From the NCBI GenBank assembly GCA_039793395.1, contig JBAMLV010000020.1:4418-68417 (forward strand): 64,000 nucleotides of DNA, written 5' to 3'. The notes below the pieces were generated by a model, which was not told the origin of the DNA, searched no databases, and worked only from the letters and a program-made list of their open reading frames with translations. Position numbers and translations under genes: made by a program. Origin of the DNA: a bacterium (GTDB lineage Bacteria; Hydrothermota; Tepidihabitantia; Tepidihabitantales; Tepidihabitantaceae). Shown here one piece after another: positions 12,396 to 41,183 of this stretch (position 1 is the stretch's first letter; every line of letters begins with the position of its first letter).

Positions 12396-12422
12396 AAAGG
12401 CGGGGGAAAGACCCCCGCCTTT
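12396..12422. terminator. Bidirectional rho-independent terminator
   Basis: AAAGGCGGGGG-aaaga-CCCCCGCCTTT between convergent pilD and OmpA-domain genes. Confidence 0.85.
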
Positions 12423-12438
12423 GGTTTTAATACGGTTA

Positions 12439-14373: not shown

Positions 14374-14456
14374 TATGTACCTCCACCATTTAGATTAATA
14401 CTGACTTTGCTCGGCCGGGGAATAACCCCCTTGATGCTGACTTTTTCATTGACCTG

Positions 14457-14485
14457 ATTTTACATTGTTTTCCGCAGTTTGTCAA
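14457..14485 (-). promoter_or_regulatory. Sigma70-type promoter for OmpA-domain gene
   Basis: Minus strand TTGACA (14485-14480), 17 nt, TAAAAT (14462-14457). Confidence 0.7.
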
Positions 14486-14502
14486 TAGTTAATCGCTTTC
14501 AG

Positions 14503-15471
14503 TTATTCCTGAATATGAAATTCAATAATGTCCTTATCCTGCAGGGTCTGGGTCCTTTCAACCCGCTGGCCCGAAAATACATCGGTCCGCCAGAGCCGGG
14601 CATAGGCGAGTTTGCGGGCAAAGTCCTTGTGCAGTTGAAGGGCAGCATCAAGTACCGTTGCCCCGTGCTTCAAGATCACCGGCTCCTGCAGATCGGGCGG
14701 TTTCCCGGGCTTTTTGGTATAAACCCGGATGATGTTCAGGGTGGTAAATACCCGGCGCCGGAACTCCTCCAGCCCCTGACCGGTGATTACCGAAACCAAA
14801 AGCACCTCCATCTCACCGAGCAGTTCCCGGAGAATGGCAAGCCGGTCCAGGACTTCGGGGGCATCAGCTTTGGTGCCGATGAGCAGCCGCGGTTTAACCG
14901 TAACTCCTTCACCAGGAGCGGTGCCGATGCGGTTCTGCTGGAGCAGTTCCTGAATTTGACCGGTAGTTTCCAGAACCGAGTCATCGCTTAAGTCCAGCAG
15001 CCAGCAGATGGCATCAGCGGTGCGCAGGATGTGAAAAAGCCATGCCGGGGAATCGGGAACCAGGGGCGGGGTGTCAATCAGTTGGATCTGAATGTCCTCA
15101 TATGGCATCATTCCCGCCAGCGGCCGGGTGGTGGTGAAGGGATAGGGTGCAACTTCGGTATTCAGTCCGGTCAGGGTCTTGACCAGCGCCGACTTGCCGC
15201 AGTTGGGTGCGCCGAAGAGCGCAACCTGACCTGCCCCCTGTTTTTCCACCGAATACCAGTCGGTGCGCCTGCCGCCACCCCGGCCGGCGGATAGTTCCCG
15301 GCGGATTCTGGCGATGCGGCTTTTGATGTCCGCCTGCATTTTTTCCGTGCCCTTGTGCTTGGGAATGGTGGCAAGCATTTCTTCCAGGCAGAGCAGTTTT
15401 TCCTCCGGGGTCTTTGCCTGTCGGAACCTCTCCTCTGCCTGTTTGTATTCCGGGGTCAGGTTTGCGGGCAT
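14503..15471 (-). CDS. OBG/DRG-family GTP-binding protein with C-terminal TGS domain
   Basis: MPANLTPEY...IPKHKGTEK N-terminus, G1 GAPNCGKS, YPFTT, TKAD, TGS domain IRVYTKKPGK...IEFHI. Confidence 0.88.
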   Translation of the reverse strand: MPANLTPEYKQAEERFRQAKTPEEKLLCLEEMLATIPKHKGTEKMQADIKSRIARIRRELSAGRGGGRRTDWYSVEKQGAGQVALFGAPNCGKSALVKTLTGLNTEVAPYPFTTTRPLAGMMPYEDIQIQLIDTPPLVPDSPAWLFHILRTADAICWLLDLSDDSVLETTGQIQELLQQNRIGTAPGEGVTVKPRLLIGTKADAPEVLDRLAILRELLGEMEVLLVSVITGQGLEEFRRRVFTTLNIIRVYTKKPGKPPDLQEPVILKHGATVLDAALQLHKDFARKLAYARLWRTDVFSGQRVERTQTLQDKDIIEFHIQE

Positions 15472-15509
15472 AATGCCGGTTTGGGCGCGGTTCTATCCGG
15501 ACTGCTGCA

Positions 15510-16781
15510 TTACGCTGATAACATTCGGCTGGCGCTGACATCCATAAACACCAGACCGGAAACAAGTTTCGGGTAGAAGTCGGTTGACTTCTGGGGCATA
15601 CGCTCCCGCTGTTGTGCCAGTGCTTGAACCTGTTCGGGTCGGGTGGGGTTGAGGAACAGTGCCAGTTGATATTCACCGGAATTGACCCGGGCGAAGGTGT
15701 CCTCCCAGTAGCGCTCATAGCCAATTTTGGCCTCAACCTGGTCCGGTTTGATACCGAACACCCGGTCAATCACCAGCGCGTGGAGCAGGGCAACATCCAG
15801 TTCCCGGTATCGGGGACTGCGGTCCTGGAGAATGTCAATTACCGTCGGTGATTTCAACCGCAGGAGATAACTTTTCCCCGGACCGTAATAGAGCACATAG
15901 GCATGCTTTTGATGGGCTGCCAGTTCCGTCTTTGCCTGCGCGTCGGCAACCGGCTTGACCACAAAGTATTCAGCCAGGCGGTTCAGCGCTTCATCCGGGC
16001 TGAGGCTGGTTCCCCTGAGCAGGCGATGAGTCGGCAGGATGACCAGACCCGGGTCGGTGATTTTGAAGCAGGCGGCGGTTTTGAACCTCAGGGCGGCGTT
16101 CTCGGGCACCTCCTTTTTTTTCTCCATCTCCTGAAGGTAGTTGAGCGCGGTTTCGTAACGGTGATGGCCATCAGCAATCAGGAGCACCCGGTTTTGTAGT
16201 GCCTGACTGATTGCCCGGAGCCGGTCCGGTTCAGCAATCCGCCACAGCCGGTGGATAACACCATAGTCATCGGTTACCTGGAGCAGGGGGGCATTCCGGG
16301 TGGTAAGCAGCGGGTCAATCTCGCCCGCCTCATCCGGGTAAAGCAGGAATATCTGCTCGTAATCCTTTTCGGTTGCCCGGAGCAGGTTCAGCCGGTCGGC
16401 TTTTGGTCCGGAATGGGTGAACTCGTGGGGCAGAATTGTGCCCTTTTCAAACTCCTCCACCCGGACCGCACCGATGAAGCCCCGGCGCCGGATGGTTTTG
16501 CCGTCAAGACTGAACTCCTCTTCCAGCACATAGAATGCGGGTGTGGGGTCTTCAATCAAAACCCCCTGGTTCAGCCATTCGGTGCAGGTCCGGGCTGAGT
16601 TTTCATAGGGGCGGTCGCCACCGGGCAGGATCAGCCGGACGAAGTTGAACCGATGCCGGGCAAGGTAAGTTGCCTGCAGCTGCGGGGTGATTTTATCATA
16701 GGGCTGGGTGATGACCGCACTCAGGTCCGCGATTTTCTCCGGATTGTAGCGGATTGCCGGAAATGGTCGGACATCAGCCAT
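15510..16781 (-). CDS. DUF1015 family protein
   Basis: VRPFPAIRY, ILPHEFT, LIADGHHRYETA, MPQKSTDFYPKL motifs; coupled to serA. Confidence 0.88.
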   Translation of the reverse strand: MADVRPFPAIRYNPEKIADLSAVITQPYDKITPQLQATYLARHRFNFVRLILPGGDRPYENSARTCTEWLNQGVLIEDPTPAFYVLEEEFSLDGKTIRRRGFIGAVRVEEFEKGTILPHEFTHSGPKADRLNLLRATEKDYEQIFLLYPDEAGEIDPLLTTRNAPLLQVTDDYGVIHRLWRIAEPDRLRAISQALQNRVLLIADGHHRYETALNYLQEMEKKKEVPENAALRFKTAACFKITDPGLVILPTHRLLRGTSLSPDEALNRLAEYFVVKPVADAQAKTELAAHQKHAYVLYYGPGKSYLLRLKSPTVIDILQDRSPRYRELDVALLHALVIDRVFGIKPDQVEAKIGYERYWEDTFARVNSGEYQLALFLNPTRPEQVQALAQQRERMPQKSTDFYPKLVSGLVFMDVSASRMLSA

Positions 16782-18085: not shown

Positions 18086-21000
18086 ATGAGGAATAAGGTC
18101 ATTATGATTACAGTTATTATCGGACTGAGTGCCGGTTATTTATTTGCCGCCGGCTGGTCCGGCAGTTTTCAATTCCGTCCGAACTCATTCGGTGTTCAGT
18201 CAGTCGTCAGGGATGGCAGGAGTTTCACCATTCTGACTCCGGGGGAAAATGCGGTTGCTGGACGCCCGGGTTTGTATAATGATTATCTGAATGAACCCGG
18301 GAAACCGCTTTTGCCCTGCTGGACATTTACGCTGGTAATTCCCCAGGGAATGAAGGTAGGTAATATCCGGGTAACTGAGCAGGGGGTAACCGGCATCAGG
18401 GCCGACTTTCCGCCTTATCCGGCGCAGCTACCGGTTCCATTTTCCCGACAGACACTTCCGGATTTTGTGCCACCAGACCCCCGGGTCTATACCGGCACCG
18501 AACTCTGGCCCGAAGCGCATTATGCGCTCGGTCCGGTTGGTGTCAAGTCCGGGTTCCGGCTGGTAAACATTACGCTGTATCCGGTCCGGTATGACCCGCA
18601 GTCCGGTTCATATTTAGTCAGCCAGCAGTTGCGGGTGGAGGTTGATTTTATCCCGGACCCGATGGCTGAAGTTTACACCCTGACGCCAAAACAGTTGCAG
18701 GTGTTCTCTGCCGGGGTAAGGAGCATTGTTGCCAATCCGGAAGATGTTCCCCGGTTTGCGCCGAGGGTAAGGTCGACCGATTTCGGCACTTATGATTATG
18801 TGATTATCACCAACTCCACGCTTGAACCCCATTTTCAGCGGTTGCTGAACTGGCGCAAACGGCTCGGCTGGTCGGGTATCATCAGGACAACCAGCTGGAT
18901 TAACTCCAATTACTCGGGCCGGGACCTGCAGGAAAAAATCCGCAACTTTGTCCGGGATTACTTCAACAATTACGGCACGATGTGGGTTCTTCTGGGTGGT
19001 GATACCGCGGTGGTGCCGACACGGCGTGCCCGTGCCTACTGTGCAGGTGAGACCGGCAACATCCCCTGTGACCTGTATTATGCAGACCTGCAATATTCCT
19101 GGGATGCCAATAATGACAACATCTTTGGCGAGTACGGGATTGACACCACCGATTTGTATTATGACCTTTATATCGGCCGGGCAAGTGTGGATGACACCGT
19201 TCAGGTCAGGACCTTTGTCAACAAGGTGATTACCCACGAGTCCGGTCCGCCAACCGACTATCTGCGCCGGATACTTCTGGTCAGCGGCTTTCTCTGGTCT
19301 GGTTATGATGAGACCCAGTCCAACGATTCAATCGCCAACATCACCCCGGCCGGCTGGTCCGATGTTTACATTGAGAACCCGGGCAATACGACGATGGTCC
19401 GGGATTCGCTCAATCACGGGTTTCAGTTCTGTCATATGGTGGGCCATGGGAATGACTACGGCATTTACCACAATTCTACTGCCTATTACAGCACCTCGGT
19501 CATCTCCGGGCACAACAATGGCTCCCGGGTGGGGTTAATCAACTCGATCGCCTGCTATCCGGGAAACTTTGAAGTTAGTGACTGTCTGGCTGAAGCCAGC
19601 CACAACTGTGCGACCGGTGGGGCACTTTCGGTGATTATGAACTCCCGTTATGGCTGGGGCATGCCGCCGGTGATCGGTCCATCAGAAAAACTGGACATCC
19701 GTTTTTATGACTACTTCTTCAATCACGATACGATGCCCATTGGCCTGACCCATGCCGAGTCCAAGGAGGTTTACCGCAATTTTGCCAATAATAGTGATGG
19801 TGCGTGGCGCTGGTGCTATTTTGAACTCAACTACTTTGGAGACCCGCTACTTGTGATGTATGAAAATGTGCCCCAGCAGTTGAACGCCAGTTTCAGCAGT
19901 CCGATTAACATCGGGATTCAGAACTTCACCGTCACGGTAAGTTCGGGTTCAAGTCCGGTGGCGCAGGCGCTGGTGTGTCTGTGGAAGGGTAGTGAGGTTT
20001 ATGAGCGTAACTACACCAACGCCTCGGGCCAGGTGACATTTACCATCAATCCCACGACCCCGGGTTATATGTATGTCACCGCCTCCAAGCCCAATTATCT
20101 GCCCGACCTGGACTCCTGTCAGGTGGTGGCGACCAGGCAGGATGTCGGGGTCAGCAGGATAATCACCCCTTCGGGAACAGTGGATTACGGCACGGTGCTT
20201 AATCCGACCGCGGTGATTAGAAACTACCTGCCGGTGCCGGTTGCCAATGTGCCGGTCCGGATGGTAATTGCCGGTGGTTATACCAGCACCGAGGTGATTT
20301 CCCAGATTAATGGCAATGATTCGGCAGTTGTCCAGTTTACCTCCTGGACCGCATCACCTGCTGGCAATCTCGGAGTCAGGTGCTCAACGATGCTTGCCGG
20401 TGATACCTTCCCGAATAATGACGCTGTTACCGGCAGCGTTTTTGTCCGGTACCGGGATGTGGGTGCGGTTTCGGTCAATGTGCCGGCAACGGTTGATTCC
20501 GGAACGGTGGTCAGTCCGCAGGCGACGGTGCGCAACTACGGCAACACCAACGAGACCTTTAACATCCGCCTGGTGATTGCCGGCACCGCTTATGACCAGA
20601 CCCGGTCGAAGACCCTGGCCGCGGGGGCAATTGATACGGTGAACTTTCCTACCTGGACCGCGTTAGAGCGGGGTACTCATGTGGTCCGCTGTTCAACCCG
20701 ATTGAACGGGGATAACAATCCGGGAAATGACCGGGCAACTGCAACCACCTTTGTCCGGGTCCGGGATGTGGGCTGCGTCCAGGTTATTTCACCGGCGGGC
20801 AATATTGATTCCAGCGCTACGGTGCCGGTGCGGGCAAAGGTCAGAAACTATGGTAATACCACGGAAAGTTTCACACTCAAGTTCCGGATTACCGGACCGG
20901 TGAACTGGAGCGACAATGCCAGTGTCAGCAATCTGGCACCGGGTGAATCGGTGGTGGTGAATTTCAATGACTGGACCTGCGGACCGCGGGGCAGTTATGC

Positions 21001-23560
21001 GACCGCCTGCTCAACCGAGCTCAGCGGGGATATGCGGTCGGCAAATAACCGCGCAACCGGCAGTTTTAATGTCAATATTCACGATCTGGCGGTCCGGGGA
21101 ATCACCAGTCCTGGTGCGCAGGTTGATTCCGGTGCACTGGTGGGGGTTCAGGTGGTGGTAGCGAATCAGGGGACGGTTCAGGAGAATGCGAAGGTTTATG
21201 TCCGGATTGGCAGTTATTACCGGGATTCGGCACTGACCGCAATACCGGCAGGCAGCGTTGAGACGGTGGATTTGCCCGCCTGGCGGGTTAGCGCCCCCCG
21301 GGGTAATGTTACCGTTTTCTGCTCCACCTATGTTTATAACGACATCAACCGCAGTAATGACACCCTGAGTTCCCTGACCACGGTGGTGGTTCATGATGTT
21401 GGTGCGGTCAGTATTGTGGCACCGACCGGCGCAGTTGACTCCGGAGCGGTAATTGCTCCGCGGGCAAGAATCAGAAATTACAGTTCGGTTGCCGAAAACT
21501 TCAGCTGCCGGTTTACCATTTCGGACGGTTATATTGCCCAGATTTCGGTTACCCTGCCAGCCGGTAGTGATTCGGTAATTACTTTCCCGGTATGGAATGC
21601 CAATACCCCGGGCAGTTTCTCAACCCGCTGTTCAACCCTGCTGAGTTCAGACCAGAATCCGGCAAACGACCGGGTAACTGGGTCGGTTCAGGTGATTGGC
21701 ACTGATGTTGGAGTGGTGGCGATTGTTGCCCCGGTTGGGCAGATTGACCCGGGTCCGGTGACACCAGTTGTCCGGCTGGGCAACTTTTCCCCTGCGCCCC
21801 GGAGCTTTGTCAGTTATCTCAGGATAACACCGCTGGGTAACACCACGCCGGTATTTGCCGACTCAGTTCTTGTGGTCGGGTTGCCGAGCGATTCGGTCCG
21901 GGAGGTGGCGTTTACCGAGTGGAATGCGACCGGGGGCAGATATGTGGTCCGGTGTTCGGTCGGGATTGGGGACCGTAATCCGGCAAATGATACGCTGAGT
22001 GCGGCCTGTCAGGTGGTGACCCATGATGCCGGGGTGGTTGCGCTGATACCGCAGGGTGAGATGCGGCCGATGGTGGTGGCACCGATTGTCCGGGTGCGCA
22101 ACTATGGGGATGCAAGTGAAGACTTTCAGGTTGCGCTCTTAATTGTGGATACGGTCAGCGGTCTGGTGGTTTATGAGGACTCAAATGAAGTGAGTGCACT
22201 GGCACCCGGTGAGTTGCGCGAGGTGCGGCTTGGTTCCTGGGCCGCAACCATCGGTTATTACCGGCTGACCGGACTGCTGAGTTTGCGCGGTGATATCAAT
22301 CCCCAGAATGATACTTTAACCGTCAAACTGAAGGTTTCACCCGGTGCCATCGGCTGGCTGCGACGGCCCGATGTGCCGACTGGCAGTAAACCGGTCAAGG
22401 CAGGTGGCGCGCTGGCAGCAATCGGAACCGATTCCCTGTTCATATTTGCGCTCAAGGGGAACAAGACCCTGGAGTTCTACCGGTATGATGTTGCGGTCGG
22501 GCTGTGGCGCACAATGGCGCAGCTGCCACCCGGTCCTTCAGGCAAGCCGGTAAGTAAGGGCGGTGCGCTGTGCTCGGATGGTGAGCGCTATATCTATGCC
22601 ACCAAGGGCAACAGCACCCTGGAGTTCTGGCGCTATGACATTATCAACAACACCTGGGAACGACTGCCGGATGTGCCAGCCGGTGCCAAGGAGCTCAAGG
22701 GTGGGACCGGACTGGCTTATGTCCGGCGCGGGGATACCGCTGAGGTGTACTGCCTGAAGGGTTCCAACACGCTGGAGTTTTATGTCTATTCAGTCGCGGC
22801 CAATACCTGGTATCCCCGGGCGCAGGCGCCAATCGGGATGTATGGTAAGAAGTTCAAATTCGGGTCGGCACTGTGTGCGCATCAGAATGAGCGGTTGTTT
22901 GCCATCAAATCCAGTGTTAATGAGTTCTACGAGTATTCAATTGCTGAAGACCGCTGGATAACCAGAGCCAGTGTTCCGGACTACTCCTCATCGGGTAAGC
23001 GGTCGCGGTGCAAGGATGGCTGCGGCTTGACCAGTGATGGCAACAATACGCTTTATGCGCTTACCGGTGGCAACCGGGATTTCTTCTACTGTTACAACAT
23101 TGAAAATAACAGCTGGATTGAACTGGCACCGATGCCCACGGGTCCGGCAGGCAAGCGGGTGAAGGCGGGTGGTGCGTTGACCTTCCTGCAGAAGCAGGTG
23201 TGGGCACTGCGGGGCAATGGCACAAACGAGTTCTACGCCTATGTGCCGGATACGATGAGCCTGTTCAGTGCCCCGCCGCCGCGTTCCGGTGTTGCCGGTG
23301 CCGAGCCGGTCTGGTCCGGGTTTGCCAGTGTGTCGGTGCTGCCCAATCCGGCGCACCACCAGTTGTGGCTGGTCAATTCCACTCGCAAGCCGGTGGAGGT
23401 AGCGCTGTTCTCAGCCGCGGGGGAGTTGCAGTTCAGGACCACGCTGGGACCGAAACAGCACTACCGGTTTGACAGCTCCCGACTGGCGACAGGTATCTAT
23501 CTGGTCCGGGTTGAGGGCGCCGGTCAGAATCGCAGTTTCAAACTGATTATCCAGCACTGA
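18086..23560 (+). CDS. C25 family (gingipain-like) cysteine peptidase with propeptide, CARDB-like repeats, Kelch-like propeller and T9SS-like C-terminal domain
   Basis: Signal peptide; YDYVIIT, WVLLGGD, DLYIGR, catalytic MVGHGN and SIACYPG, FGDP; C-terminus VLPNPA...LATGIYLVRV...KLIIQH; AAAGGAGG SD. Confidence 0.9.
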   Translation: MRNKVIMITVIIGLSAGYLFAAGWSGSFQFRPNSFGVQSVVRDGRSFTILTPGENAVAGRPGLYNDYLNEPGKPLLPCWTFTLVIPQGMKVGNIRVTEQGVTGIRADFPPYPAQLPVPFSRQTLPDFVPPDPRVYTGTELWPEAHYALGPVGVKSGFRLVNITLYPVRYDPQSGSYLVSQQLRVEVDFIPDPMAEVYTLTPKQLQVFSAGVRSIVANPEDVPRFAPRVRSTDFGTYDYVIITNSTLEPHFQRLLNWRKRLGWSGIIRTTSWINSNYSGRDLQEKIRNFVRDYFNNYGTMWVLLGGDTAVVPTRRARAYCAGETGNIPCDLYYADLQYSWDANNDNIFGEYGIDTTDLYYDLYIGRASVDDTVQVRTFVNKVITHESGPPTDYLRRILLVSGFLWSGYDETQSNDSIANITPAGWSDVYIENPGNTTMVRDSLNHGFQFCHMVGHGNDYGIYHNSTAYYSTSVISGHNNGSRVGLINSIACYPGNFEVSDCLAEASHNCATGGALSVIMNSRYGWGMPPVIGPSEKLDIRFYDYFFNHDTMPIGLTHAESKEVYRNFANNSDGAWRWCYFELNYFGDPLLVMYENVPQQLNASFSSPINIGIQNFTVTVSSGSSPVAQALVCLWKGSEVYERNYTNASGQVTFTINPTTPGYMYVTASKPNYLPDLDSCQVVATRQDVGVSRIITPSGTVDYGTVLNPTAVIRNYLPVPVANVPVRMVIAGGYTSTEVISQINGNDSAVVQFTSWTASPAGNLGVRCSTMLAGDTFPNNDAVTGSVFVRYRDVGAVSVNVPATVDSGTVVSPQATVRNYGNTNETFNIRLVIAGTAYDQTRSKTLAAGAIDTVNFPTWTALERGTHVVRCSTRLNGDNNPGNDRATATTFVRVRDVGCVQVISPAGNIDSSATVPVRAKVRNYGNTTESFTLKFRITGPVNWSDNASVSNLAPGESVVVNFNDWTCGPRGSYATACSTELSGDMRSANNRATGSFNVNIHDLAVRGITSPGAQVDSGALVGVQVVVANQGTVQENAKVYVRIGSYYRDSALTAIPAGSVETVDLPAWRVSAPRGNVTVFCSTYVYNDINRSNDTLSSLTTVVVHDVGAVSIVAPTGAVDSGAVIAPRARIRNYSSVAENFSCRFTISDGYIAQISVTLPAGSDSVITFPVWNANTPGSFSTRCSTLLSSDQNPANDRVTGSVQVIGTDVGVVAIVAPVGQIDPGPVTPVVRLGNFSPAPRSFVSYLRITPLGNTTPVFADSVLVVGLPSDSVREVAFTEWNATGGRYVVRCSVGIGDRNPANDTLSAACQVVTHDAGVVALIPQGEMRPMVVAPIVRVRNYGDASEDFQVALLIVDTVSGLVVYEDSNEVSALAPGELREVRLGSWAATIGYYRLTGLLSLRGDINPQNDTLTVKLKVSPGAIGWLRRPDVPTGSKPVKAGGALAAIGTDSLFIFALKGNKTLEFYRYDVAVGLWRTMAQLPPGPSGKPVSKGGALCSDGERYIYATKGNSTLEFWRYDIINNTWERLPDVPAGAKELKGGTGLAYVRRGDTAEVYCLKGSNTLEFYVYSVAANTWYPRAQAPIGMYGKKFKFGSALCAHQNERLFAIKSSVNEFYEYSIAEDRWITRASVPDYSSSGKRSRCKDGCGLTSDGNNTLYALTGGNRDFFYCYNIENNSWIELAPMPTGPAGKRVKAGGALTFLQKQVWALRGNGTNEFYAYVPDTMSLFSAPPPRSGVAGAEPVWSGFASVSVLPNPAHHQLWLVNSTRKPVEVALFSAAGELQFRTTLGPKQHYRFDSSRLATGIYLVRVEGAGQNRSFKLIIQH
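20141..22340 (+). repeat. Seven tandem ~100-aa CARDB/Ig-like protein repeats
   Basis: Units begin DVGVSRII, DVGAVSVN, DVGCVQVI, DLAVRGIT, DVGAVSIV, DVGVVAIV, DAGVVALI and end near N[DN]xxT/S; boundaries approximate. Confidence 0.75.
22350..23250 (+). repeat. Six Kelch-like beta-propeller blades
   Basis: Recurring (GGAL)...ALKGNxTxEFYxY...W...P units; boundaries approximate. Confidence 0.75.
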
Positions 23561-23625: not shown

Positions 23626-25149
23626 TTATTTCAGTGTGCCGACCGTCTGTTCCACCGCCTGCAGCAGTTTTCCGGAGCGGACCAGTTCAGTCAGGCGGTT
23701 GATGTCGTATTGAAGCGGCCGGTCGGCTTCCAGTTTCGGAACAGTCTGACGGATGAGTTCATAGGCGACCGCGGTACCTTTGCCCAGTTTTAGCGGTTTT
23801 CGGAACTCCACCGCTTGAGCCCCGCTGAGCAGTTCAATCGCAATAACAAACCAGGCGTTATCCAGAATCTGCTGGGTCTTGCGCGCCGAGGTGAAAGACA
23901 TGGAGACAAAGTCCTCCTGGTCGGCAGCAGCCGGGATTGAGCCGGTGGCAGCGGGAGCGGCGAGAATGCGGTTTTCACAGATGAGCATTCCTTGGGTGTA
24001 CTGGGTGAGCATCAGTCCGGAGAACATTCCGGCACCGCGGGTAAGGAATGCCGGCAGACCAGCAGAGAGGTTGCGGTTTAACAGCCGATTGGTGCGCCGT
24101 TCTGAAAGGACCGCAATCATCGTGATTCCGGCGCCGACCAGGTCCAGCGCCAGTGCCAGCGGTGTGCCCTGGAAGTTGGCACCGGTGAGATATGCCTGGT
24201 CATCCGGGAAGAAGAGCGGATTGTCACCAACACCGTTCAGTTCAATCTCAAACATCTGCCTTGCCCAGTGCAGAGCATCTTTTGCTCCACCAACTACCTG
24301 AGGTGTGGAACGCAGGGAATAGGCGTCCTGAACCTTCTTGCCCGGCTGTTTCAGCATTTCCGAGTCTTCGGTCAGGCGCCTGATGTTCTCGGCACAGGCG
24401 ATTGCCCCGGGATAGCCCCGTGCGCGGTGAATCCTTTCATCATAGGCAGCCATATTGGCGTTGAGCACCTCCAGAGTCAGTGCCGCGGCAATCTCTGAGG
24501 TTTTGAGATACCGGTCGGCGTCAAACAGCTGGAGCGCACCCCAGCCGGCGGTCATATTTGAGCCGTTGATGGTTGCCAGACCGTCCCGGGCTTCAAACTC
24601 AATCGGCTGAATGCCCGCGGCTTTGAGCGCTTCAGCGCCGCTCAGCCGTTTACCCTGATAATATGCCTCCCCTTCACCGAGCAGGACCAGTGCCATCTGG
24701 CTCATCGGTGAAAGGTCGCCGCAGGCACCGACCGACCCCCGGTCAAATACTACCGGTGTTACACCCCGGTTCAGCAGTTCAATCAGCAGCTCCACCACTT
24801 TAAGGCGGATTCCGGAGTTGCCGTTTGCCAGGACATTAATCCGGGAGCAGATGGCAGCCCGGACTACCGGTTCGGGCAGAGGCTCACCACAGCCGGCAGA
24901 ATGGGAGTAAACCAGATAGCGCTGGAATTGGCGGGTCTGTTCCGGGGTGAGAATTACTTCGGAAAGTTCGCCGATACCGGTGGTGATGCCATACATCACG
25001 GCACGGGCGGCGATTTTATCCTCAACAAACTGGCGGCAGCGGTTTATCCGTTCCCGGGCAGCGGGGGCAAGTTCCACCTTTTCCCGGTCCCGTGCCACCT
25101 GCACCAGTTGCTCAATTTTTAAACTCTTGCCATCAATCACCACTGCCAT
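23626..25149 (-). CDS. hutH: Histidine ammonia-lyase (MIO family) with Ala-Cys-Gly triad
   Basis: YGITTGIG, LVYSH (SH specificity pair of HALs), GSVGACGDLSP, QDAYSLRSTPQV, DNPL, ANFQG, QEDFVSM. Confidence 0.88.
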   Translation of the reverse strand: MAVVIDGKSLKIEQLVQVARDREKVELAPAARERINRCRQFVEDKIAARAVMYGITTGIGELSEVILTPEQTRQFQRYLVYSHSAGCGEPLPEPVVRAAICSRINVLANGNSGIRLKVVELLIELLNRGVTPVVFDRGSVGACGDLSPMSQMALVLLGEGEAYYQGKRLSGAEALKAAGIQPIEFEARDGLATINGSNMTAGWGALQLFDADRYLKTSEIAAALTLEVLNANMAAYDERIHRARGYPGAIACAENIRRLTEDSEMLKQPGKKVQDAYSLRSTPQVVGGAKDALHWARQMFEIELNGVGDNPLFFPDDQAYLTGANFQGTPLALALDLVGAGITMIAVLSERRTNRLLNRNLSAGLPAFLTRGAGMFSGLMLTQYTQGMLICENRILAAPAATGSIPAAADQEDFVSMSFTSARKTQQILDNAWFVIAIELLSGAQAVEFRKPLKLGKGTAVAYELIRQTVPKLEADRPLQYDINRLTELVRSGKLLQAVEQTVGTLK

Positions 25150-25617
25150 TTACCTTCCTCCTTTCAGTCGCATTTTCTGAATATGGCTGCCGGGCCAGTA
25201 AACCCGCTGGCAACGGGGGCAGCGCCGAAACTCATTATGAATCTGATAGATATAGAACGGCACCGCCGGTCGTGCCTGCTCCCGGCTGATTTTCTTTAGC
25301 ACCTCATTGCAGACCGAGCAGCGGGTCAATACCCCGGTTTCGTCTTTCTTTTCTTCGGTCTGGATATTCAATGCCTGGCAAACCTGCTCAACCTGCCGGT
25401 CAACATTTTCACTTTCCAGTAGGAGCACATCGGGCAGGTTCTTCATCCGGTAATACCGGGTGAGGAAAATTCGGCGGTCCGCTCTTGCCTGACGATAGGC
25501 ATCCAGGCTCTTGAGCCCGCGCTCATAACGGACATCAATACCCAAAAGACGAAGCCGCCGGGCAAGGGTTCCAAGCATCACATCACAGAATAGCCGGGGT
25601 GGCTCAGTTTTATTCAT
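25150..25617 (-). CDS. Mut7-C RNase domain protein (DUF82)
   Basis: CDVMLGTLARRLRLLGID, RIFLTR, zinc ribbon CSVC...CPRC, VYWPGSH. Confidence 0.88.
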   Translation of the reverse strand: MNKTEPPRLFCDVMLGTLARRLRLLGIDVRYERGLKSLDAYRQARADRRIFLTRYYRMKNLPDVLLLESENVDRQVEQVCQALNIQTEEKKDETGVLTRCSVCNEVLKKISREQARPAVPFYIYQIHNEFRRCPRCQRVYWPGSHIQKMRLKGGR

Positions 25618-26046: not shown

Positions 26047-27594
26047 ATGAAGGTCAAACTCGCGGGCTTCAACATTGAGCAGGAGCTGATTGAGAATTTG
26101 ACGAAGAATCGCCGGGTGGTGCCAACACCAGAGACAATTGCTGCCGCTTATGCCCGGGTGAGCCGGAGTAAAAAGTCGGTTGAGGCGCTGCGCAGCGAGG
26201 CGCGGCGGGAACTGAAAAAGGCGCGGCAGTCAAATCAGACGATTGTTTTTGAGATGGGCCACCACTCAATTGCCGAGCATGCGGTATTTAACTTTGACAT
26301 TGAGGGCGTTTCCCGGCTGGCGGTGGAGGCAATTGAGCATCACCGGCTGGCATCGTTTACCGAGCGTTCGCAGCGTTATGTGCAACTGGAAGAGCGGTTT
26401 GTTGTGCCCCCCGAGATTCAGGATTCGGAGTTTTTGAGCGACTATCTGAATCTGATGCGGATTCAGTATGAGACCTATAACCGGCTGGTGGAGCGGCTGA
26501 AGGAGCATTTTGCCCAGACCCGGACCGACTTGAAGGAGCACCCGGAACGGCTCGAAAATCTCGCCAAGGAGGATGCCCGTTATATCACGCCGCTGGCAAC
26601 CCAGACCCAGCTCGGAATGACCATCAATGCCCGGACCCTGGAGTATATGCTCAGAAGGATGGCGGCAAGTGAACTTGCCGAGGTGCGGAGCCTGAGCGCC
26701 GAATTGCTCCAGGAGGCAGAGGTGGTTGCACCATCGCTTTTGATCTTCACCGGACCGACCGAATATGAGCGGCAGACCTATCAGCGGCTGGCAGAGTTTG
26801 CCGGCAGTTTTATGACCCGGCCGTTTCCGCGCCGGCCGCGTAATCTGATTGCGATGTCGGCTTCGGATGTGACGCTGGTTGATTATACCCAGAATGCGGA
26901 TAATAAACTGCTGGCGGCACTGCTGCACACCACCTCGCAGGCAACCTATGCCGAGTGCTTTTCCCGGTCGGAGAAGCAGACCCTTGCCCGGAAAAAGGAG
27001 ATTTTCAAACTTGCCTGTCAGGACCTGCAGGCTTATGATGCGGTTTTGCGGGAGTTTGAGCATCTGTATGTGACCTTTGAACTGGTGATTTCGGCGGCAT
27101 GTTTTGCCCAGTTGAAGCGGCACCGTTTGACCACCATTACCTGTCAGCCCTATGACCCGGATTTGGGCTGGACGATTCCGGTTTCAATTGCCGAACTGAA
27201 GGAGCACAAAAGTTTCAAAGAGGTGCTGAGTCTGACCGAGGAGGTTTACGACAAAATTGCGGGTGTTAACCGGGCGGCGGCACAGTATGTGCTGACCAAT
27301 TCCCATCAGCGCCGGGTGCTTTTGACCCTGAATGCGCGCGAACTTTATCACCTTTCCCGGCTGCGCCAGGACACTTCGGCGCAGTGGGACATCCGGGACA
27401 TTGTCAGCCGGATGGTGGAGCAGGCACGGAATGTGATGCCGCTGACCTTGCTGCTTGCCGGGGGCAAGGACAGTTATCCGAGGGTTTATCAGGAACTTTT
27501 CGGTCAGGAGCCGAGGGTGGTCAAGCTGGAACTGCCTCCGCCCCGGCCCCGGGTGTCAAACAGTCAACCGCGGAATAATAACAAAAGGGATTAG
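26047..27594 (+). CDS. thyX: FAD-dependent thymidylate synthase with two ThyX-like domains
   Basis: GHHSIAEH, HHRLASFTERSQRYV, EDARYITP, AQWDIR; second half repeats the fold (EFEH, QLKRHRLTT, AAQYVLTN, LNARELYH). Confidence 0.85.
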   Translation: MKVKLAGFNIEQELIENLTKNRRVVPTPETIAAAYARVSRSKKSVEALRSEARRELKKARQSNQTIVFEMGHHSIAEHAVFNFDIEGVSRLAVEAIEHHRLASFTERSQRYVQLEERFVVPPEIQDSEFLSDYLNLMRIQYETYNRLVERLKEHFAQTRTDLKEHPERLENLAKEDARYITPLATQTQLGMTINARTLEYMLRRMAASELAEVRSLSAELLQEAEVVAPSLLIFTGPTEYERQTYQRLAEFAGSFMTRPFPRRPRNLIAMSASDVTLVDYTQNADNKLLAALLHTTSQATYAECFSRSEKQTLARKKEIFKLACQDLQAYDAVLREFEHLYVTFELVISAACFAQLKRHRLTTITCQPYDPDLGWTIPVSIAELKEHKSFKEVLSLTEEVYDKIAGVNRAAAQYVLTNSHQRRVLLTLNARELYHLSRLRQDTSAQWDIRDIVSRMVEQARNVMPLTLLLAGGKDSYPRVYQELFGQEPRVVKLELPPPRPRVSNSQPRNNNKRD

Positions 27595-27961: not shown

Positions 27962-29725
27962 ATGCGGTCGGTAATTTTAATTCTTATTTTGACCGGTTTC
28001 TCCTTTGCCCAGTTGAGTTATATTGAGTCCTCCAGCGGTTTTTATAACAGTCCGGGATTGGAGGAAGGCAGGACCGAGATTGAGTTTGCGGACATCAACG
28101 GTGATGGTAATGTGGATATCGTCTCAATTGGTGACCACGGCAGCCCCTATGTCAATACCCAGGAGCACGGGGTGATGGTCTGGTTTGGTGACGGCAATGG
28201 CAACTGGAATGTGTATCAGTATGGGAACTTCGGTTATGGCGGAATTGCGGTCGGTGATGTCAACCGGGATGGGAAATGGGATGTCGGCTATGGAATGCAT
28301 CACAACTATTCGGGTGAGGATTTGGGCGATGATATGCTGGAGGTGGCGCTGGGGGACGGTACCGGAATGATGTGGACCGCCTGGGATGACGGGTTGATGC
28401 CCGGGGGTGCGTGCTGGGGAATGTTTTCAACCGACTTTGCCGATATTGACCATGACGGTGACCTGGATGTCGGCTCCTGCTCATTTGGCTACGGTGTTGG
28501 ACTGAGGGTGTATCTAAATCAGGAGAACGGCACCTGGCAGCAGTGCTGGGGCACACCGGAAAGTATCAACAGCAGTATGGAGTTCTATTTCCGGGATGTG
28601 AACCGGGACGGCAATCCGGACATTATCACCGCTACTGCTGGTCCGGCGGTCTATTTTGGTGACGGTACGGGGCAGTTTTATCCTGGTGATTCCGGTCTGC
28701 CCAGGTCCAGTTACGGCTTTGAGGGGATATCGGCTGGTGATGTGGACAATGACGGCGGTGCTGATGTTGCACTGGTTAACGCCACGCGGGGAATTGAGGT
28801 CTGGCGGTATAACGAGCTAACCCGCGTCTGGGAAAATTTTTCCGGAACTCTGCCGGCGGTGGACAGTTTCTGGGCAACGCAACTGGTTGATATGAATCGG
28901 GACGGGTATGTTGACCTTCTGGGTTTACATCGGCGGTATGTGAAGGTCTGGGCCGGTGATGGTCAGGGCAACTGGCAGGAATTGGCAACGGTGGCACTAA
29001 ATCGCAGTACCGATTATGGGACATTCCGTGCCGGTGCCGATTTTGACCATAACGGCTTTCCGGATTTTGCCCTGATCGTGGAAGAAGGGACCTGGCCCAA
29101 TTATCGCAACTATGCCCGGGCGTTCCGGGAGACATCACCGAGGGAGAGTCTGAATATCTTTCCCGTGTTTCCCCGGGGTGGCGAGCGATTCTGGAACGGT
29201 TCGGTTCAGTTTATTGACTGGTGGAGTGAGGCACCGGGGGCAGAGTCAAGCCGGGTGCGGTTAGAACTATCGGTTAGCGGTCCGGCAGGACCATGGATGC
29301 TCATTGCCGACAGTTTGAAAAACAGCGGCCGGTTCCAATGGCTGGTGCCGGAGACGCTCAGTTCCCGGAACTGTTATATCCGGTATACCGTTTTCAAGGG
29401 CTCACAGCTCAGCAGTGCGGTTACACCCGGTCCATTCTTTATCGGCAATCCAGCCGGGGTTGCGGCTGAGCAGCCGGTTTTTTACGAGCCAGGATTTATC
29501 CAGATTGTGCCCAATCCAGCACGAGGGCGGACAAAAATTTTACTGTCCGCACCTTTGAACCGGGATGAGCTGGTAACGGTCGGTGATGTTACCGGCCGGG
29601 AGTTTTTCCGCTCGCAGGTAAGGGCGGGCGCCGGGCCGGTGGTGATTGATTTGCACCCGCTTAATCCGGGTGTTTATTTCATCCGGTTAAGCCGGTTCCA
29701 GACCCGTCTGACAGTAATAAAATAA
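27962..29725 (+). CDS. FG-GAP/VCBS repeat protein with T9SS-like C-terminal domain
   Basis: Signal peptide; repeated DxNxDG motifs (DINGDG, DVNRDG, DIDHDGD, DVDNDG, DMNRDG, DFDHNG); tail IVPNPA...LNPGVYFIRL. Confidence 0.85.
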   Translation: MRSVILILILTGFSFAQLSYIESSSGFYNSPGLEEGRTEIEFADINGDGNVDIVSIGDHGSPYVNTQEHGVMVWFGDGNGNWNVYQYGNFGYGGIAVGDVNRDGKWDVGYGMHHNYSGEDLGDDMLEVALGDGTGMMWTAWDDGLMPGGACWGMFSTDFADIDHDGDLDVGSCSFGYGVGLRVYLNQENGTWQQCWGTPESINSSMEFYFRDVNRDGNPDIITATAGPAVYFGDGTGQFYPGDSGLPRSSYGFEGISAGDVDNDGGADVALVNATRGIEVWRYNELTRVWENFSGTLPAVDSFWATQLVDMNRDGYVDLLGLHRRYVKVWAGDGQGNWQELATVALNRSTDYGTFRAGADFDHNGFPDFALIVEEGTWPNYRNYARAFRETSPRESLNIFPVFPRGGERFWNGSVQFIDWWSEAPGAESSRVRLELSVSGPAGPWMLIADSLKNSGRFQWLVPETLSSRNCYIRYTVFKGSQLSSAVTPGPFFIGNPAGVAAEQPVFYEPGFIQIVPNPARGRTKILLSAPLNRDELVTVGDVTGREFFRSQVRAGAGPVVIDLHPLNPGVYFIRLSRFQTRLTVIK

Positions 29726-31152: not shown

Positions 31153-32166
31153 TTGGACACTTACTTCCTACCAAACGAGCAGCGCGGTTCCTGGCTTGCC
31201 CGACTGGCAGGTAAATTTGATGTTTTTTATCCGGGGGTGGTTGAGGAGCGGGTACACTGGCAGAAATACAACCCCTCAGATTTTCAGATTGAGCAGCTGG
31301 CGTTAAGGCAGATTCGTGCGGCGGAGCCGATCAAGCCTTTTCTTTTTGCCCCACGGGAACGGGTGGCATCATTCCCCGAACCGCTGGCGCCCGAACCGGA
31401 ACCGGTCCGGGTGCTTCTTTTTGGACTCAAGGGTTGTGATTTGCGCGGCCTCGCAGTTCATCAGAAGATGTTTCTGGAAGGTGAGTTTGCCGACCCGTTT
31501 TATGCCCGGCGGCGGCAAAACACCTATTTTATCTCTGCCGACTGTCCGGTACCGGAGAAGAGTTGCTTCTGCAATCTGCTGGGACTGAATCCGTTTGTGA
31601 CTGAGGGTGTGGATTTGAGCCTGACCGAATTGCCTGATGGCTGGTTGGTTGAGGTAATTTCGGAGCGGGGCCGGGAGCTGGTCGACAGTGAATTTAAGCC
31701 GGCGACCGAGGAGCAACTGCGCCGGCGCCAGGCACAACGGGACCAGGCGGTTCAGTTTTTAAAGGAGCAGAATCCTAAGCCCTTGAATCCGAATCTGGCG
31801 CAGGCAATTGCCGAACGGACCGGGGATACAAAATTCTGGGCCGAAGCCGCGGCAGGTTGTGTGGAGTGCTTTGGCTGTCTCACCACCTGCCCGACCTGCT
31901 TCTGCTTTCTGCTTTACGACCAGGGCAATGCCGAACAGTTTGAGCGCAGCAGGGTCTGGGATTTCTGCTATCTGCCAATGTATGCCCGGGTTGGCGGCGG
32001 TGCAAATCCGCGGCCGCGGTTTATCCAGCGGTTCATCAATCGGTTTCACTGTAAGTTTATGCACTTCAAGAACCAGAACGGCTTTTACGCCTGTTCCGGC
32101 TGCGGCCGGTGCTTCACCACCTGTATGGGTAAGATTGATATCCGCAACATTCTGGGGCAGTTATGA
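31153..32166 (+). CDS. 4Fe-4S dicluster protein, sulfhydrogenase beta subunit HydB / AsrA-like
   Basis: GLKGCDL, CPVPEKSCFC, CVECFGCLTTCPTCFCF, RFHCKF, CSGCGRCFTTCMGKIDI. Confidence 0.88.
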   Translation: MDTYFLPNEQRGSWLARLAGKFDVFYPGVVEERVHWQKYNPSDFQIEQLALRQIRAAEPIKPFLFAPRERVASFPEPLAPEPEPVRVLLFGLKGCDLRGLAVHQKMFLEGEFADPFYARRRQNTYFISADCPVPEKSCFCNLLGLNPFVTEGVDLSLTELPDGWLVEVISERGRELVDSEFKPATEEQLRRRQAQRDQAVQFLKEQNPKPLNPNLAQAIAERTGDTKFWAEAAAGCVECFGCLTTCPTCFCFLLYDQGNAEQFERSRVWDFCYLPMYARVGGGANPRPRFIQRFINRFHCKFMHFKNQNGFYACSGCGRCFTTCMGKIDIRNILGQL

Positions 32167-32978
32167 GCAATCCTTATCAGCCGGTTGTTACCAGAATCCT
32201 TAATGTCATTGAGGAAACCCCCAACATCCGGACCTTTGTTCTCAAGCCGGAAAAAGAGATTCCGTTTCTTGCCGGACAGTTTGTGGAACTGACCATTCCG
32301 GGATTTGGTGAGGCACCGTTTACCCCCTCATCTTCCCAGTTTCAGCGGGAGACCCTGGAGATGACGATTATGAGGGTGGGCAGGGCAACCTCGGCGCTTT
32401 TCACCCGGCAACCCGGTGATTTATTGGGCGTCCGTGGTCCATATGGCAAGCCCTATCCGCTGAAGGAGTTTGAGGGCCGGGATATATACATTGTTGGCGG
32501 CGGAGTTGGACTGGCACCCCTGCGTGCCCTGTTTCTGGCGCTGGTGCACGAGATTAAGAAATATGGCCGGATTTATCTCCGTTACGGTGCCCGGACTCCC
32601 AGGGATATCGTTTACAAGCAGCAGTTGAAGGAGTGGGAGAAAATCAATGGTGTGGACATTGACCTTTCGGTGGACAGTGCGACTGAGCCCTGGGAGCGGA
32701 AGGTGGGGGTGGTGACCTGTCTGATGGATGAAATTCCCTGCGATGTAAAGAAGAGCGTGGCGGTGGTGTGCGGGCCACCAATTATGATGAAGTTTGTCAC
32801 CAAAAGGCTGCTGGAAGCCGGGTTTCCGGGTAAGAACATCTATCTGTCAATGGAGATGAATATGTCCTGTGGGGTTGGTCAGTGCGGACACTGCCGGCTC
32901 GGGCCCTATTTTACCTGCAAGGATGGCCCGGTTCTCACCTGGGAGCAGATTAAGGACATTGAGGAGCCGTTCCTGTGA
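32163..32978 (+). CDS. FAD/NAD(P)-binding 2Fe-2S protein, sulfhydrogenase gamma subunit HydG / AsrB-like
   Basis: GQFVELT, GEAPFT, VRGPYG, GGGVGLAPLR, VCGPPIMM, MSCGVGQCGHC...CKDGPV. Confidence 0.9.
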   Translation: MSNPYQPVVTRILNVIEETPNIRTFVLKPEKEIPFLAGQFVELTIPGFGEAPFTPSSSQFQRETLEMTIMRVGRATSALFTRQPGDLLGVRGPYGKPYPLKEFEGRDIYIVGGGVGLAPLRALFLALVHEIKKYGRIYLRYGARTPRDIVYKQQLKEWEKINGVDIDLSVDSATEPWERKVGVVTCLMDEIPCDVKKSVAVVCGPPIMMKFVTKRLLEAGFPGKNIYLSMEMNMSCGVGQCGHCRLGPYFTCKDGPVLTWEQIKDIEEPFL

Positions 32979-34570
32979 AGACCGTCAGGAAATTTGTGTG
33001 CGACTTCTGTCTTAACGGGTGCAACATCGGGATTCTTTTTGACGGTTATCAGTACCGGATTGAGTATCTGACCGAGGAACCGCCCAATTACGGCCGGCTG
33101 TGTCCCAGGGGAAACAGTGCCAGTATCGTCATTGACCATCCGAAAAGGCTCTGCTATCCGCTCCTTGATGGCAAAGAGATAACCTGGCAGCAGGCGCTGA
33201 ATACGATTCAGCAGTGGCTGGATGAGTGTTCCGGCAGGGAACGGGCAGTTGTTTATAGCCGGGGGTTGAGTCCAGCAGAAGCGGCAACGGTTGCCGGTTT
33301 TGCCCGGCAGCTGGGAACGGAAAATCTGGTGTGCGGTTATCTGGAACCGGACAACTTTTTAGGTGTTCAGCTGGCAGGGGTGAGGAGGGCAAAACTGGAA
33401 GAGGTGCAGTCCGCCCGGGCAATCCTTTTGGTGGGTGATGTGTTCAGCGCTTCACCGGTGGCAGCAAAATTCATCCTTGACGCCCGGTATGCAGAAAGAA
33501 ATAGCCGGCTGGTGGTGATTGATTCCATCCGGACCAGGCAGTCTGGATTTGCCCAGCTGTTTCTGCTGGTGAAGCCCGGAACCGAATACCGGGCGCTGGC
33601 AGCAATTGCCGGTATCCTGGACCCGAAGCTGAATCTGGATGTTGACCGTTTTGCCGTTGAATGCGGGGTGGAGCGAAGCCGGCTGGAAGAGGCGGCGGCG
33701 ATTTTGAAATCCACGCCCGCAGGTCTGGTGGGCGCGGCTGCCAGTTTCGGCCGGGTTGCCAATCCCCTGCTCCACAGTTTGTGTGCCCAGCTGGTGGCAC
33801 TCAAGACCGACAAGCCCTTTGCCGGTTTTGCCGAGGCGCTGATTCCAAATGGAAGGCTAAGTTTCCAGCAGTTTCAGGAAAAGGTTGTTCAGGGGCAGAT
33901 TAAGATGATTTTCTGGTTTGGCGGGCTTTTCCCGTATAGCTATCCTGAAGTTTTCCCAGCGCTGAGTCAGGTTCGGTTTCGGGTAGCAACAACCATTTTC
34001 CGGTTGAGTTCACCCCTGCCCGGGCTGGTGCTGCCAGTGGTAAGTGAATTTGAGAAGTCCGGCAGCGGTGAAACTCTGTGGCGGCAGGTGAGCCGGGAGC
34101 CGGTTGTCAGACCGGTGAGCGGTTCAAGACTGATCAGTGAGATTATTCAAGGGATTACCGGCAGCACCGCTACCGAGTCCCTGAATGTGCCGGTGCCGGT
34201 TCAGGTTGATAAATTGCTGGAATGGTTAGCAGGTTCCCGCAAGCCGGAGCCGGTTTCCGGTTATCTATTGGTTGGCGAACGCCGGGCAATCGGCATCGGT
34301 GAGTTTTACGATTCAGAAGAAGAGATCACTGTTAATCCAGCGGATGCCCGGCAGCTCGGGGTGAAGGATGAGGAGCTGGTAACGGTGAAGAGCCGAACCG
34401 CCGAGGAGCAGTTCCGGGTGAAAGTTTCGGGTGCGGTACCGGCTGGTGTGCTGGTGGTCGGGGTTGACGCGCACCGGAACCGCCGGCTGTTTTCAGTAGA
34501 ATTTGACGAGCCGGGCGGCATTGCTACAATTCCACCGACCAAGGTTGAAGTATGGCGGACTCAGGGATAA
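32975..34570 (+). CDS. Molybdopterin-oxidoreductase-fold protein (NuoG C-half/Fdh alpha-like), apparently lacking the metal ligand
   Basis: CDFCLNGC...LCPRG 4Fe-4S motif, RLCYPL, ITWQQAL, LVVIDS, C-terminal VNPADARQLGVKDEELVTVKS domain; no C/U-H at the Fdh ligand position. Confidence 0.75.
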   Translation: MKTVRKFVCDFCLNGCNIGILFDGYQYRIEYLTEEPPNYGRLCPRGNSASIVIDHPKRLCYPLLDGKEITWQQALNTIQQWLDECSGRERAVVYSRGLSPAEAATVAGFARQLGTENLVCGYLEPDNFLGVQLAGVRRAKLEEVQSARAILLVGDVFSASPVAAKFILDARYAERNSRLVVIDSIRTRQSGFAQLFLLVKPGTEYRALAAIAGILDPKLNLDVDRFAVECGVERSRLEEAAAILKSTPAGLVGAAASFGRVANPLLHSLCAQLVALKTDKPFAGFAEALIPNGRLSFQQFQEKVVQGQIKMIFWFGGLFPYSYPEVFPALSQVRFRVATTIFRLSSPLPGLVLPVVSEFEKSGSGETLWRQVSREPVVRPVSGSRLISEIIQGITGSTATESLNVPVPVQVDKLLEWLAGSRKPEPVSGYLLVGERRAIGIGEFYDSEEEITVNPADARQLGVKDEELVTVKSRTAEEQFRVKVSGAVPAGVLVVGVDAHRNRRLFSVEFDEPGGIATIPPTKVEVWRTQG

Positions 34571-35046
34571 AGGTGCAGAGCCGGAAGCGGCTTTTTGTTC
34601 GGCTGGATTACTGTATTGGCTGCCGGTCGTGTGAGGCGGCATGCCGGAGCCGGTTCAAGGGTGAAGCCCGGGTCCGTTATGCCGAGGTGAATGAAACCAC
34701 ACTCATTCCCCTGCCCTGCCGGCACTGTGAGGAGCCGCTGTGTGCTGCTGCCTGTCCGTTTGAGGTTATTAGAAAGGATGAGCAGGGGGGGATTGTCTAT
34801 CAGTCCAGTGTTCACTGTGTCGGCTGTCGCTCCTGTATCCTTGCCTGTCCGTTCGGGGTGCTGGACAAAGAGCTGTTGCGCCGGATGGCACAGAAGTGCA
34901 ATCTGTGTCAGGACCGGCCTGAGGGCCCGCGCTGTGCTGCCAGCTGTCCGACCGGGGCGCTTTGCTTCATTGACGAGGGTGAAATTGCGGAGCAGCAGGT
35001 GGGTAAGCGGACAACCGCCCGGCTGCCGTTCTGGAGGCGGGTATGA
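34552..35046 (+). CDS. 4x[4Fe-4S] ferredoxin-like subunit (HycB/HydN-like)
   Basis: CIGCRSCEAAC, CRHCEEPLCAAACP, CVGCRSCILACP, KCNLC...PRCAASCPTGAL. Confidence 0.9.
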   Translation: MADSGIKVQSRKRLFVRLDYCIGCRSCEAACRSRFKGEARVRYAEVNETTLIPLPCRHCEEPLCAAACPFEVIRKDEQGGIVYQSSVHCVGCRSCILACPFGVLDKELLRRMAQKCNLCQDRPEGPRCAASCPTGALCFIDEGEIAEQQVGKRTTARLPFWRRV

Positions 35047-41180: not shown

Positions 41181-41183
41181 TTT

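Follow-up and report, generated by a model that had tools for sequence, protein, structure and literature searches.

The MIO enzymes, namely the histidine, phenylalanine and tyrosine ammonia-lyases (HAL, PAL and TAL) and the aminomutases, carry a textbook protein-derived cofactor, 4-methylidene-imidazole-5-one (MIO), and have both therapeutic and biocatalytic uses. The precursor of this cofactor is usually described in the field as X-Ser-Gly, with an invariant serine. In the HAL of Pseudomonas putida (PpHAL) this is Ser143, the residue whose side chain turns into the MIO methylidene. Asp145 is required for cyclisation in that enzyme (D145A structure 1gk3), and Asp145 and Phe329 together drive it (mutant structures 1gk3, 1gk2 and 1eb4). 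The serine has also been replaced by mutagenesis: PpHAL S143C reportedly matures to fully active enzyme (Langer, Lieber and Retey, Biochemistry, 1994), whilst S143A is reported to be inactive, and S143T reportedly is too. Amongst natural enzymes, Ala-Ser-Gly was conserved in all HALs compared by a 2024 study (PMC11432326), and a 2022 review of the family lists variation of the MIO tripeptide at its first position only (PMC9002059). Here we describe a HAL gene from a 64,000-nucleotide stretch of a Hydrothermota genome (assembly GCA_039793395.1, contig JBAMLV010000020.1, positions 4,418 to 68,417 of the forward strand; hereafter the window) whose precursor reads Ala-Cys-Gly (ACG) rather than Ala-Ser-Gly (ASG). 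This state recurs in bacteria and archaea, and is probably converted to MIO with the release of H2S.

The gene occupies positions 23626..25149 of the minus strand, an ATG-started open reading frame (ORF) of 507 amino acids plus a stop codon. Its product matches PF00221 (Lyase_aromatic) at full length (E = 2.3e-169, with residues 10-468 spanning profile positions 1-466 of 466), passes the hutH equivalog model TIGR01225 by a narrow margin (556.1 bits, cut-off 539.15) and also exceeds the cut-off of NF006871 (575.1 bits, cut-off 524). The nearest PDB sequences are HALs, namely 7tqr, 6v6h and the PpHAL 1gkm/1b8f series (E 1e-98 to 1e-88), with 7tqr the top match (E = 8e-98). An AlphaFold 2 (AF2) model with a predicted template-modelling score (pTM) of 0.88 aligned to PpHAL 1b8f with a template-modelling score (TM) of 0.92 and a root-mean-square deviation of 2.3 Å at about 35% identity, and to SgTAM 2ohy with a TM of 0.92. 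The window HAL is thus predicted to share the fold of solved members of the MIO superfamily. The model was of low confidence at the MIO loop (residues 140-144) and in segments between residues 364 and 412, and nowhere else; at 140-144 this would be normal for any MIO loop, and is hence uninformative. Given a hutH score above the cut-off and a fold match with a TM of 0.92, the gene is assigned to the histidine ammonia-lyases. The names that sources give to near-identical proteins suggest that the host is a bacterium of candidate division WOR-3.

On the minus strand, the codons GCC (24726-24724), TGC (24723-24721) and GGC (24720-24718) give FDRGSVGACGDLSPMSQ. The resulting triad, Ala142-Cys143-Gly144 (24718..24726, minus strand), aligns to the ASG of HAL structures, in whose PDB sequences the cofactor stands as X at this site. 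The window HAL and PpHAL share residue numbers as far as 195, which places the cysteine at position 143 (codon 24721..24723), where the family norm is serine. The literal Ala-Ser-Gly motif of the MIO superfamily (PF00221) is therefore absent, the central serine being replaced and the alanine and glycine kept. An initial annotation, made from the letters of the window, had reported this Ala-Cys-Gly triad, and re-reading the codons and the ORF translation gave the same result. It had also described the other catalytic motifs as intact, and here too we agree: Y53, S82-H83, D145, N195, Q274, Y277, R280, F326 and E412 are all present, their PpHAL counterparts being, in order, Y53, H83, D145, N195, Q277, Y280, R283, F329 and E414. 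The catalytic tyrosine Tyr53 (24991..24993), Asn195 (24565..24567) and the residues Gln274, Tyr277 and Arg280 of the motif VQDAYSLR (24310..24330), all on the minus strand like those that follow, are invariant in our alignments. Asp145 (24715..24717) is invariant in 121/121 clade members and in 88/88 HALs from GTDB loci, and the structure 1gk3, titled 'HAL mutant D145A', is among the structural neighbours of the AF2 model. Phe326, the counterpart of the Phe329 that packs on MIO in PpHAL, lies at 24169..24174 together with the following residue. Ser82-His83 (24901..24906) aligns with the HAL Ser/His 'substrate switch', which sets HALs apart from PAL and TAL (PMC11432326). Moreover, eight HAL active-site residues (Y53, H83, N195, Q277, Y280, R283, F329 and E414 in PpHAL numbering, used from here on unless stated) are the same in every Cys form and every Ser form, and A142, G144 and D145 are likewise invariant across both.

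The distribution of the cysteine was followed in GTDB, scanned with one genome per species, and in clustered protein sequences. The scan returned 80 loci, to which the window's own locus was added, and the HALs of these loci fall cleanly into two groups, a subfamily of 54 and 34 others. The subfamily, to which the window HAL belongs, is defined by Met149, Gln151, Gln330, Asp412 and Phe416 ('PMxQ'), each present in 54/54 members. The other HALs have Leu149 and His151 (30/34 in each case), His330, Asn or Gly at position 412, and His416 (n = 34). In the window these markers are Met149 and Gln151 (24697..24705), Gln327 (canonical His330), which is the residue beside Phe326, and Asp410 and Phe414 (canonical Asn/Gly412 and His416), which stand either side of Glu412 in the sequence DQEDF (23908..23922). 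Cys143 was found in 32 of the 54 subfamily members, the remaining 22 having serine, and in 1 of the 34 other HALs. Altogether TGC or TGT stands at this position in 33 GTDB species loci, and both codons are used within the subfamily. Subfamily membership is independent of whether position 143 holds cysteine or serine. Members are scattered over widely separated phyla, amongst them Thermoplasmata, Heimdallarchaeota, Bacteroidales, Chloroflexota, Acidobacteriota and Myxococcota (loci L004-L083), and their tree departs from taxonomy. This pattern of sequences suggests extensive horizontal transfer of the subfamily.

Amongst the 120 clusters at 90% identity nearest to the window HAL (66-99% identity; WOR-3, KSB1, Aminicenantes and Terriglobales), 112 were ACG and 8 ASG, and at 66% identity the proteins of WOR-3 and Aminicenantes used TGC or TGT throughout. 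ACG was also present in Bacteroidales and Clostridia. The single canonical HAL with cysteine in the GTDB loci (L065), from a Thermoleophilia metagenome-assembled genome (MAG), led to a second, independent Cys-rich clade: its nearest 120 clusters, canonical HALs of Thermoleophilia and Gaiellales, comprised 58 ACG and 60 ASG, and all ACG members of this clade kept L149, H151 and H330. In the distant family, sampled as 150 representatives of 50%-identity clusters, cysteine was rarer (7 ACG against 120 ASG, with 10 SSG, 1 TSG and 1 CSG). In the window's subfamily, cysteine is the commoner state and has held across deep divergence; there it is no less fit than serine. A few of the 50%-identity representatives had triad patterns that were unmatched or a loop that was replaced, such as P0254 (GSVGYLTHMAH); these may be MIO-less homologues or fragments. 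The initial annotation had raised the possibility of an anaerobe-specific subfamily. As judged from MAG labels, the taxa with ACG lend no support to such a restriction, including as they do Thermoleophilia/Gaiellales, Gemmatimonadales, Hyphomicrobiales, Terriglobales and a surface-ocean euryarchaeote from Tara Oceans. Cultured members of the Thermoleophilia and Gaiellales are aerobic, and O2 is not needed for MIO formation from a Ser or a Cys precursor alike.

In aligned full-length sequences (256 family members), position 143 is Ser or Cys alone. Fitch parsimony on a neighbour-joining tree gave 11 Ser/Cys changes over this set, with five or more lineages affected separately, and parsimony on codon classes (AGY, TCN and TGY) gave 22 changes over 87 genes; neighbour-joining was the only tree method used, and these switch counts are therefore approximate. 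Cysteine occurs independently in P0153/P0239, P0209, P0227 and the Thermoleophilia clade, amongst others, and Ser forms are interspersed within each Cys-rich clade. The idea that cysteine marks a subfamily, as a monophyletic ACG group, is ruled out by this polyphyly. Moreover, the same conclusion holds firmly when trees are set aside. P0043 (ASG) shares 79% identity with the window HAL, whilst ACG members reach down to 66%, and four Ser/Cys pairs were found at 90% identity or above. The exchange is of recent date: P0288 (ASG, codon TCG) and P0281 (ACG, codon TGC) show 98% protein identity and 96.9% DNA identity. A coupling of Cys143 to the loss of His416, an idea prompted by the fixation of Phe416 in each of the two Cys-rich clades, was dropped (Fisher p = 0.70 amongst 50%-identity representatives: Cys/non-His 3, Cys/His 4, Ser/non-His 44, Ser/His 81).

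The codons used at this site suggest how such switching may come about. Serine codons form two disjoint sets (PMC6872785). Both sets occur at site 143 in both HAL groups (AGC, AGT, TCC, TCA, TCT and TCG). Between AGY and TCN, the single-step intermediates encode either Thr (ACN) or Cys (TGY). Should threonine be unable to mature, as is reported for S143T, cysteine would be the sole functional codon bridge. Lineages crossing between the two serine sets would then pass through ACG and sometimes stay there, which would account for the recurrence of the Cys state. Serine and cysteine may be close to selective equivalence at position 143, with lineages drifting between both, since the identity of the precursor would be erased on maturation.

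The genes surrounding Cys-type HALs were inspected for the other steps of histidine utilisation (hut). In L065 the order is hutH(ACG)-hutI-ftcD-hutU on one strand (9998-15822, plus strand). The compact hutH-hutI-ftcD-hutU operon is found in soil Thermoleophilia/Gaiellales, where about half of the hutH clusters are ACG. The Tara Oceans euryarchaeote (L019) carries, in order, ftcD, an ORF with a match to FchA, hutU and hutH(ACG); FchA (methenyl-tetrahydrofolate cyclohydrolase) is the only NCBIfam match of that ORF, at 147 bits and below the 275-bit cut-off. In a Myxococcota locus (L012), hutU begins 76 bp past hutH(ACG). Cys-type genes therefore hold the hutH slot of hut operons. An enzyme that provides the sole HAL activity of a complete hut operon has to work, and a functional HAL can therefore have a Cys precursor. 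The 98%-identical pair adds a direct comparison: the ASG member (L087, 158-3032) is followed after 10 bp by a gene for a hutI-like amidohydrolase, and the ACG member (L088, 1983-5434) is preceded by an amino-acid permease gene and followed, again after 10 bp, by an ORF that is truncated at the contig edge. As the two share the same hut context, a further suggestion of the initial annotation, that a different substrate might follow from the cysteine, is unsupported.

Taken together, we consider it probable that the window gene encodes an active HAL, converting L-histidine to trans-urocanate and NH3, in which MIO forms autocatalytically from Ala142-Cys143-Gly144 with the loss of H2S. In this scheme the amide nitrogen of Gly144 would attack the carbonyl of Ala142, and the imidazolone ring would close with the loss of water. 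The side chain of Cys143 would then be beta-eliminated as H2S, where serine would give water, leaving the exocyclic methylidene of a mature cofactor chemically identical to Ser-derived MIO. We infer this formation of MIO, the release of H2S and histidine as the substrate on three grounds: exchange of Ser and Cys at an otherwise invariant site needs the matured residue to be identical, the residues that drive cyclisation are retained, and the engineered S143C reportedly gives active enzyme. A native Cys-derived MIO with H2S elimination had been proposed in the initial annotation. The proposal fits the Ser/Cys-only exchange, the retention of A142, G144, D145 and F329, and the occupation of the hutH slot. 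As the final cofactor is probably identical, the practical effect on enzyme function is likely to be small.

Several observations weigh against this account, and three other explanations have to be considered beside it. No RNA run was found that holds the window HAL gene, and the switch counts given above carry the uncertainty of their trees. The simplest objection is that TGC is a sequencing or assembly error, Ser and Cys codons being one base apart and the data being metagenome assemblies, or that the gene is a decaying pseudogene. The codon was checked at the level of assembled Logan contigs of metagenome runs. Two hot-spring runs (2024, contig depth 41; 2017, depth 8) equal the window sequence across the codon, and in a third run a relative of about 88% identity has a plus-strand G>A change at 24721, which is the synonymous TGC>TGT and keeps the cysteine. 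Moreover, the exact 507-amino-acid protein was called on 7 contigs from at least three assemblies (including JGI 3300041917, GCA_049969595.1 and GCA_049700775.1), the ORF is intact and of full length, and the number of independent 90%-identity clusters that keep the cysteine is well above 150. Sequencing error is thereby ruled out, the chance left to an error or a pseudogene is negligible, and the cysteine is native, as the initial annotation had held. It is also very unlikely that Cys143 stays unconverted, leaving a protein without MIO that is inactive or that works through a thiol or some other mechanism, in the manner of MIO-independent homologues such as ergothionase. In favour of this, ergothionase 6s7j is a structural neighbour of the model (TM 0.91); the low AF2 confidence at 140-144 is uninformative. 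Ergothionase works without MIO since trimethylamine is a good leaving group. However, exchange with serine at 98% identity would be intolerable if the two residues ended chemically different, A142, G144, D145 and F329 are strictly conserved, and Cys forms serve as the sole hutH of complete hut operons. The similarity to HALs (E 1e-98) also lies far above that to ergothionase (E 3e-61), and the engineered S143C is reported to mature.

A more serious contender is that the subfamily is a paralogue that acts on another substrate, such as a modified histidine, or catalyses another reaction, such as one of the aminomutase type, and in which MIO is still derived from Cys or Ser and the cysteine is incidental. 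The five marker substitutions flank catalytic residues and are fixed in 54/54 members. On TIGR01225 the subfamily scores 499-556 bits, around the cut-off of 539, with its more distant members falling below. Linkage to hut genes is rare: hutU lies within 7 kb at 5/53 subfamily loci against 14/27 canonical loci, and hutI is nearby at 3/53 against 13/27 loci of other HALs. In the window itself, a tblastn search for hutU, hutI and ftcD detected none of the three genes in 64 kb, and Pfam searches of ten large ORFs returned pilus, secretin, Nuo/Mrp-like and Rnf genes instead of hut. Moreover, seven loci (L009, L018, L025, L028, L042, L046 and L054) pair a subfamily gene with a canonical-type HAL paralogue. 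The adjacent canonical-type paralogues score 588-699 bits on the hutH model, against 499-517 bits for the subfamily members, and such side-by-side occurrence suggests that the two are non-redundant, with some functional divergence. The pairs are arranged in tandem or divergently (for example L025:8405-9982 and 9998-11527), and both genes have the full HAL catalytic set. Together, these points make a divergent substrate or role conceivable. Nevertheless, the imidazole-binding and catalytic residues of HAL are invariant in the subfamily, including His83 and Glu414, and HAL is the top NCBIfam family throughout. In L019 and L012 the subfamily gene is the only HAL of a hut cluster and has hutU as a neighbour, whilst in L014, L016 and L030 hutU is no more than 7 kb away. 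In L042 the next gene encodes a hutI-like amidohydrolase, and in L018 a histidyl-tRNA synthetase adjoins the HAL pair. We therefore regard a divergent substrate or reaction as unlikely, though it is the alternative that we take most seriously. A related and rather doubtful proposition is that the subfamily is a functionally distinct paralogue, in substrate, regulation or maturation chemistry, in which Cys143 is positively favoured as an adaptation for cofactor biogenesis. The subfamily replaces three histidines beside active-site residues (positions 151, 330 and 416), and cysteine could be favoured because H2S leaves better than water when dehydration of serine is poorly assisted. An ordinary HAL with a Cys-derived MIO is the account that we retain.

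The immediate setting of the gene was also inspected. Directly upstream on the minus strand lies a gene for a Mut7-C RNase domain (25150..25617; PF01927, E = 4e-35). Its stop codon abuts the ATG of the HAL gene with zero intergenic bases, and co-transcription of the two is therefore probable. The adjacency recurred in fewer than three of the 80 GTDB loci and was absent from the loci of two relatives that were looked up; a conserved Mut7-C partnership, not being seen in other lineages, was ruled out. Convergent with the HAL gene is a gene for an 1824-amino-acid Peptidase_C25 (gingipain-like) protein (18086-23560, plus strand), which also has CARDB-like repeats, a beta-propeller region and a C-terminal sorting domain of the Por/type IX secretion system kind. 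Por_Secre_tail domains were found on further ORFs of the window, including 27962-29725 and 59456-61441. Such surroundings would suit an organism that lives by degrading proteins and amino acids, but carry no specific information. Further along, a ThyX of 515 amino acids (26047-27594, plus strand; PF02511, Thy1) has two Thy1 stretches and about twice the usual ThyX length, and looks like a tandem-fused flavin-dependent thymidylate synthase. A run of energy-conservation genes occupies 31153-44035 (plus strand) and 46637-51816 (minus strand). One strand of it carries genes with Fer4, FAD/NAD-binding and molybdopterin-binding domains, and then genes for NuoH-like and 49-kDa/NiFe-hydrogenase-like subunits and for several of the Mrp/Nuo antiporter type, and the other strand carries an RnfC-like gene.

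A literature search found no mention of a natural Ala-Cys-Gly (ACG) precursor of MIO, which is weak evidence as most subscription journals lay outside its coverage, and public annotations of the nearest homologues read plainly 'histidine ammonia-lyase'. A Cys precursor of MIO that is natural, widespread and recurrent, in HALs that are ordinary in other respects, thus appears to be new, in that we found no prior description of it. Mutagenesis had already foreshadowed the chemistry, and specialists should be no more than moderately surprised. What changes is that the mutagenesis result of 1994 becomes a natural phenomenon: Ala-Cys-Gly is widely used in nature, by the majority of one HAL subfamily and roughly half the members of a second clade, in both bacteria and archaea. 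Motif-based annotation that demands serine, such as the PROSITE pattern, will miss or mis-flag ACG enzymes. These HALs also offer a natural system in which MIO biogenesis could be followed via the release of H2S. Moreover, they provide an unusually clean case of an essential serine moving between disjoint codon families, in which the Cys intermediate would be functional because the side-chain heteroatom is discarded in maturation.

Amongst described systems, ergothionase of Treponema denticola (6s7j) shares the fold of the window HAL (TM 0.91), but it was rejected as the closest relative, its sequence match being E = 2.8e-61 against 1e-98 to 1e-91 for HALs; the window HAL is much nearer to HALs in sequence and has lost none of the residues for MIO formation and HAL catalysis. 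The first-position variants SSG, TSG and CSG are also natural variation of the MIO tripeptide. The window HAL, however, varies the central residue, which supplies the methylidene carbon, and a change of that residue from Ser to Cys would therefore turn the leaving group from water to H2S. Canonical HutH proteins, such as the HALs of Thermoplasma acidophilum (7tqr) and Geobacillus kaustophilus (GkHAL), all have Ala-Ser-Gly where the window HAL has Ala-Cys-Gly, whilst the Ser/His switch and catalytic set of GkHAL (PMC11432326) are common to the window HAL. Unlike the HutH of hut operons, the window HAL lies in a genome region from which the hut operon is absent. With PpHAL HutH (1b8f, 1gkm) it shares the fold, the length, the numbering to residue 195, the catalytic residues and the MIO-forming A142, G144 and D145; at about 35% identity, the two differ in the second shell by L149M, H151Q, H330Q, N412D and H416F. 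Engineered PpHAL S143C has the same Ala-Cys-Gly precursor, whereas in the window HAL the cysteine is natural and conserved.

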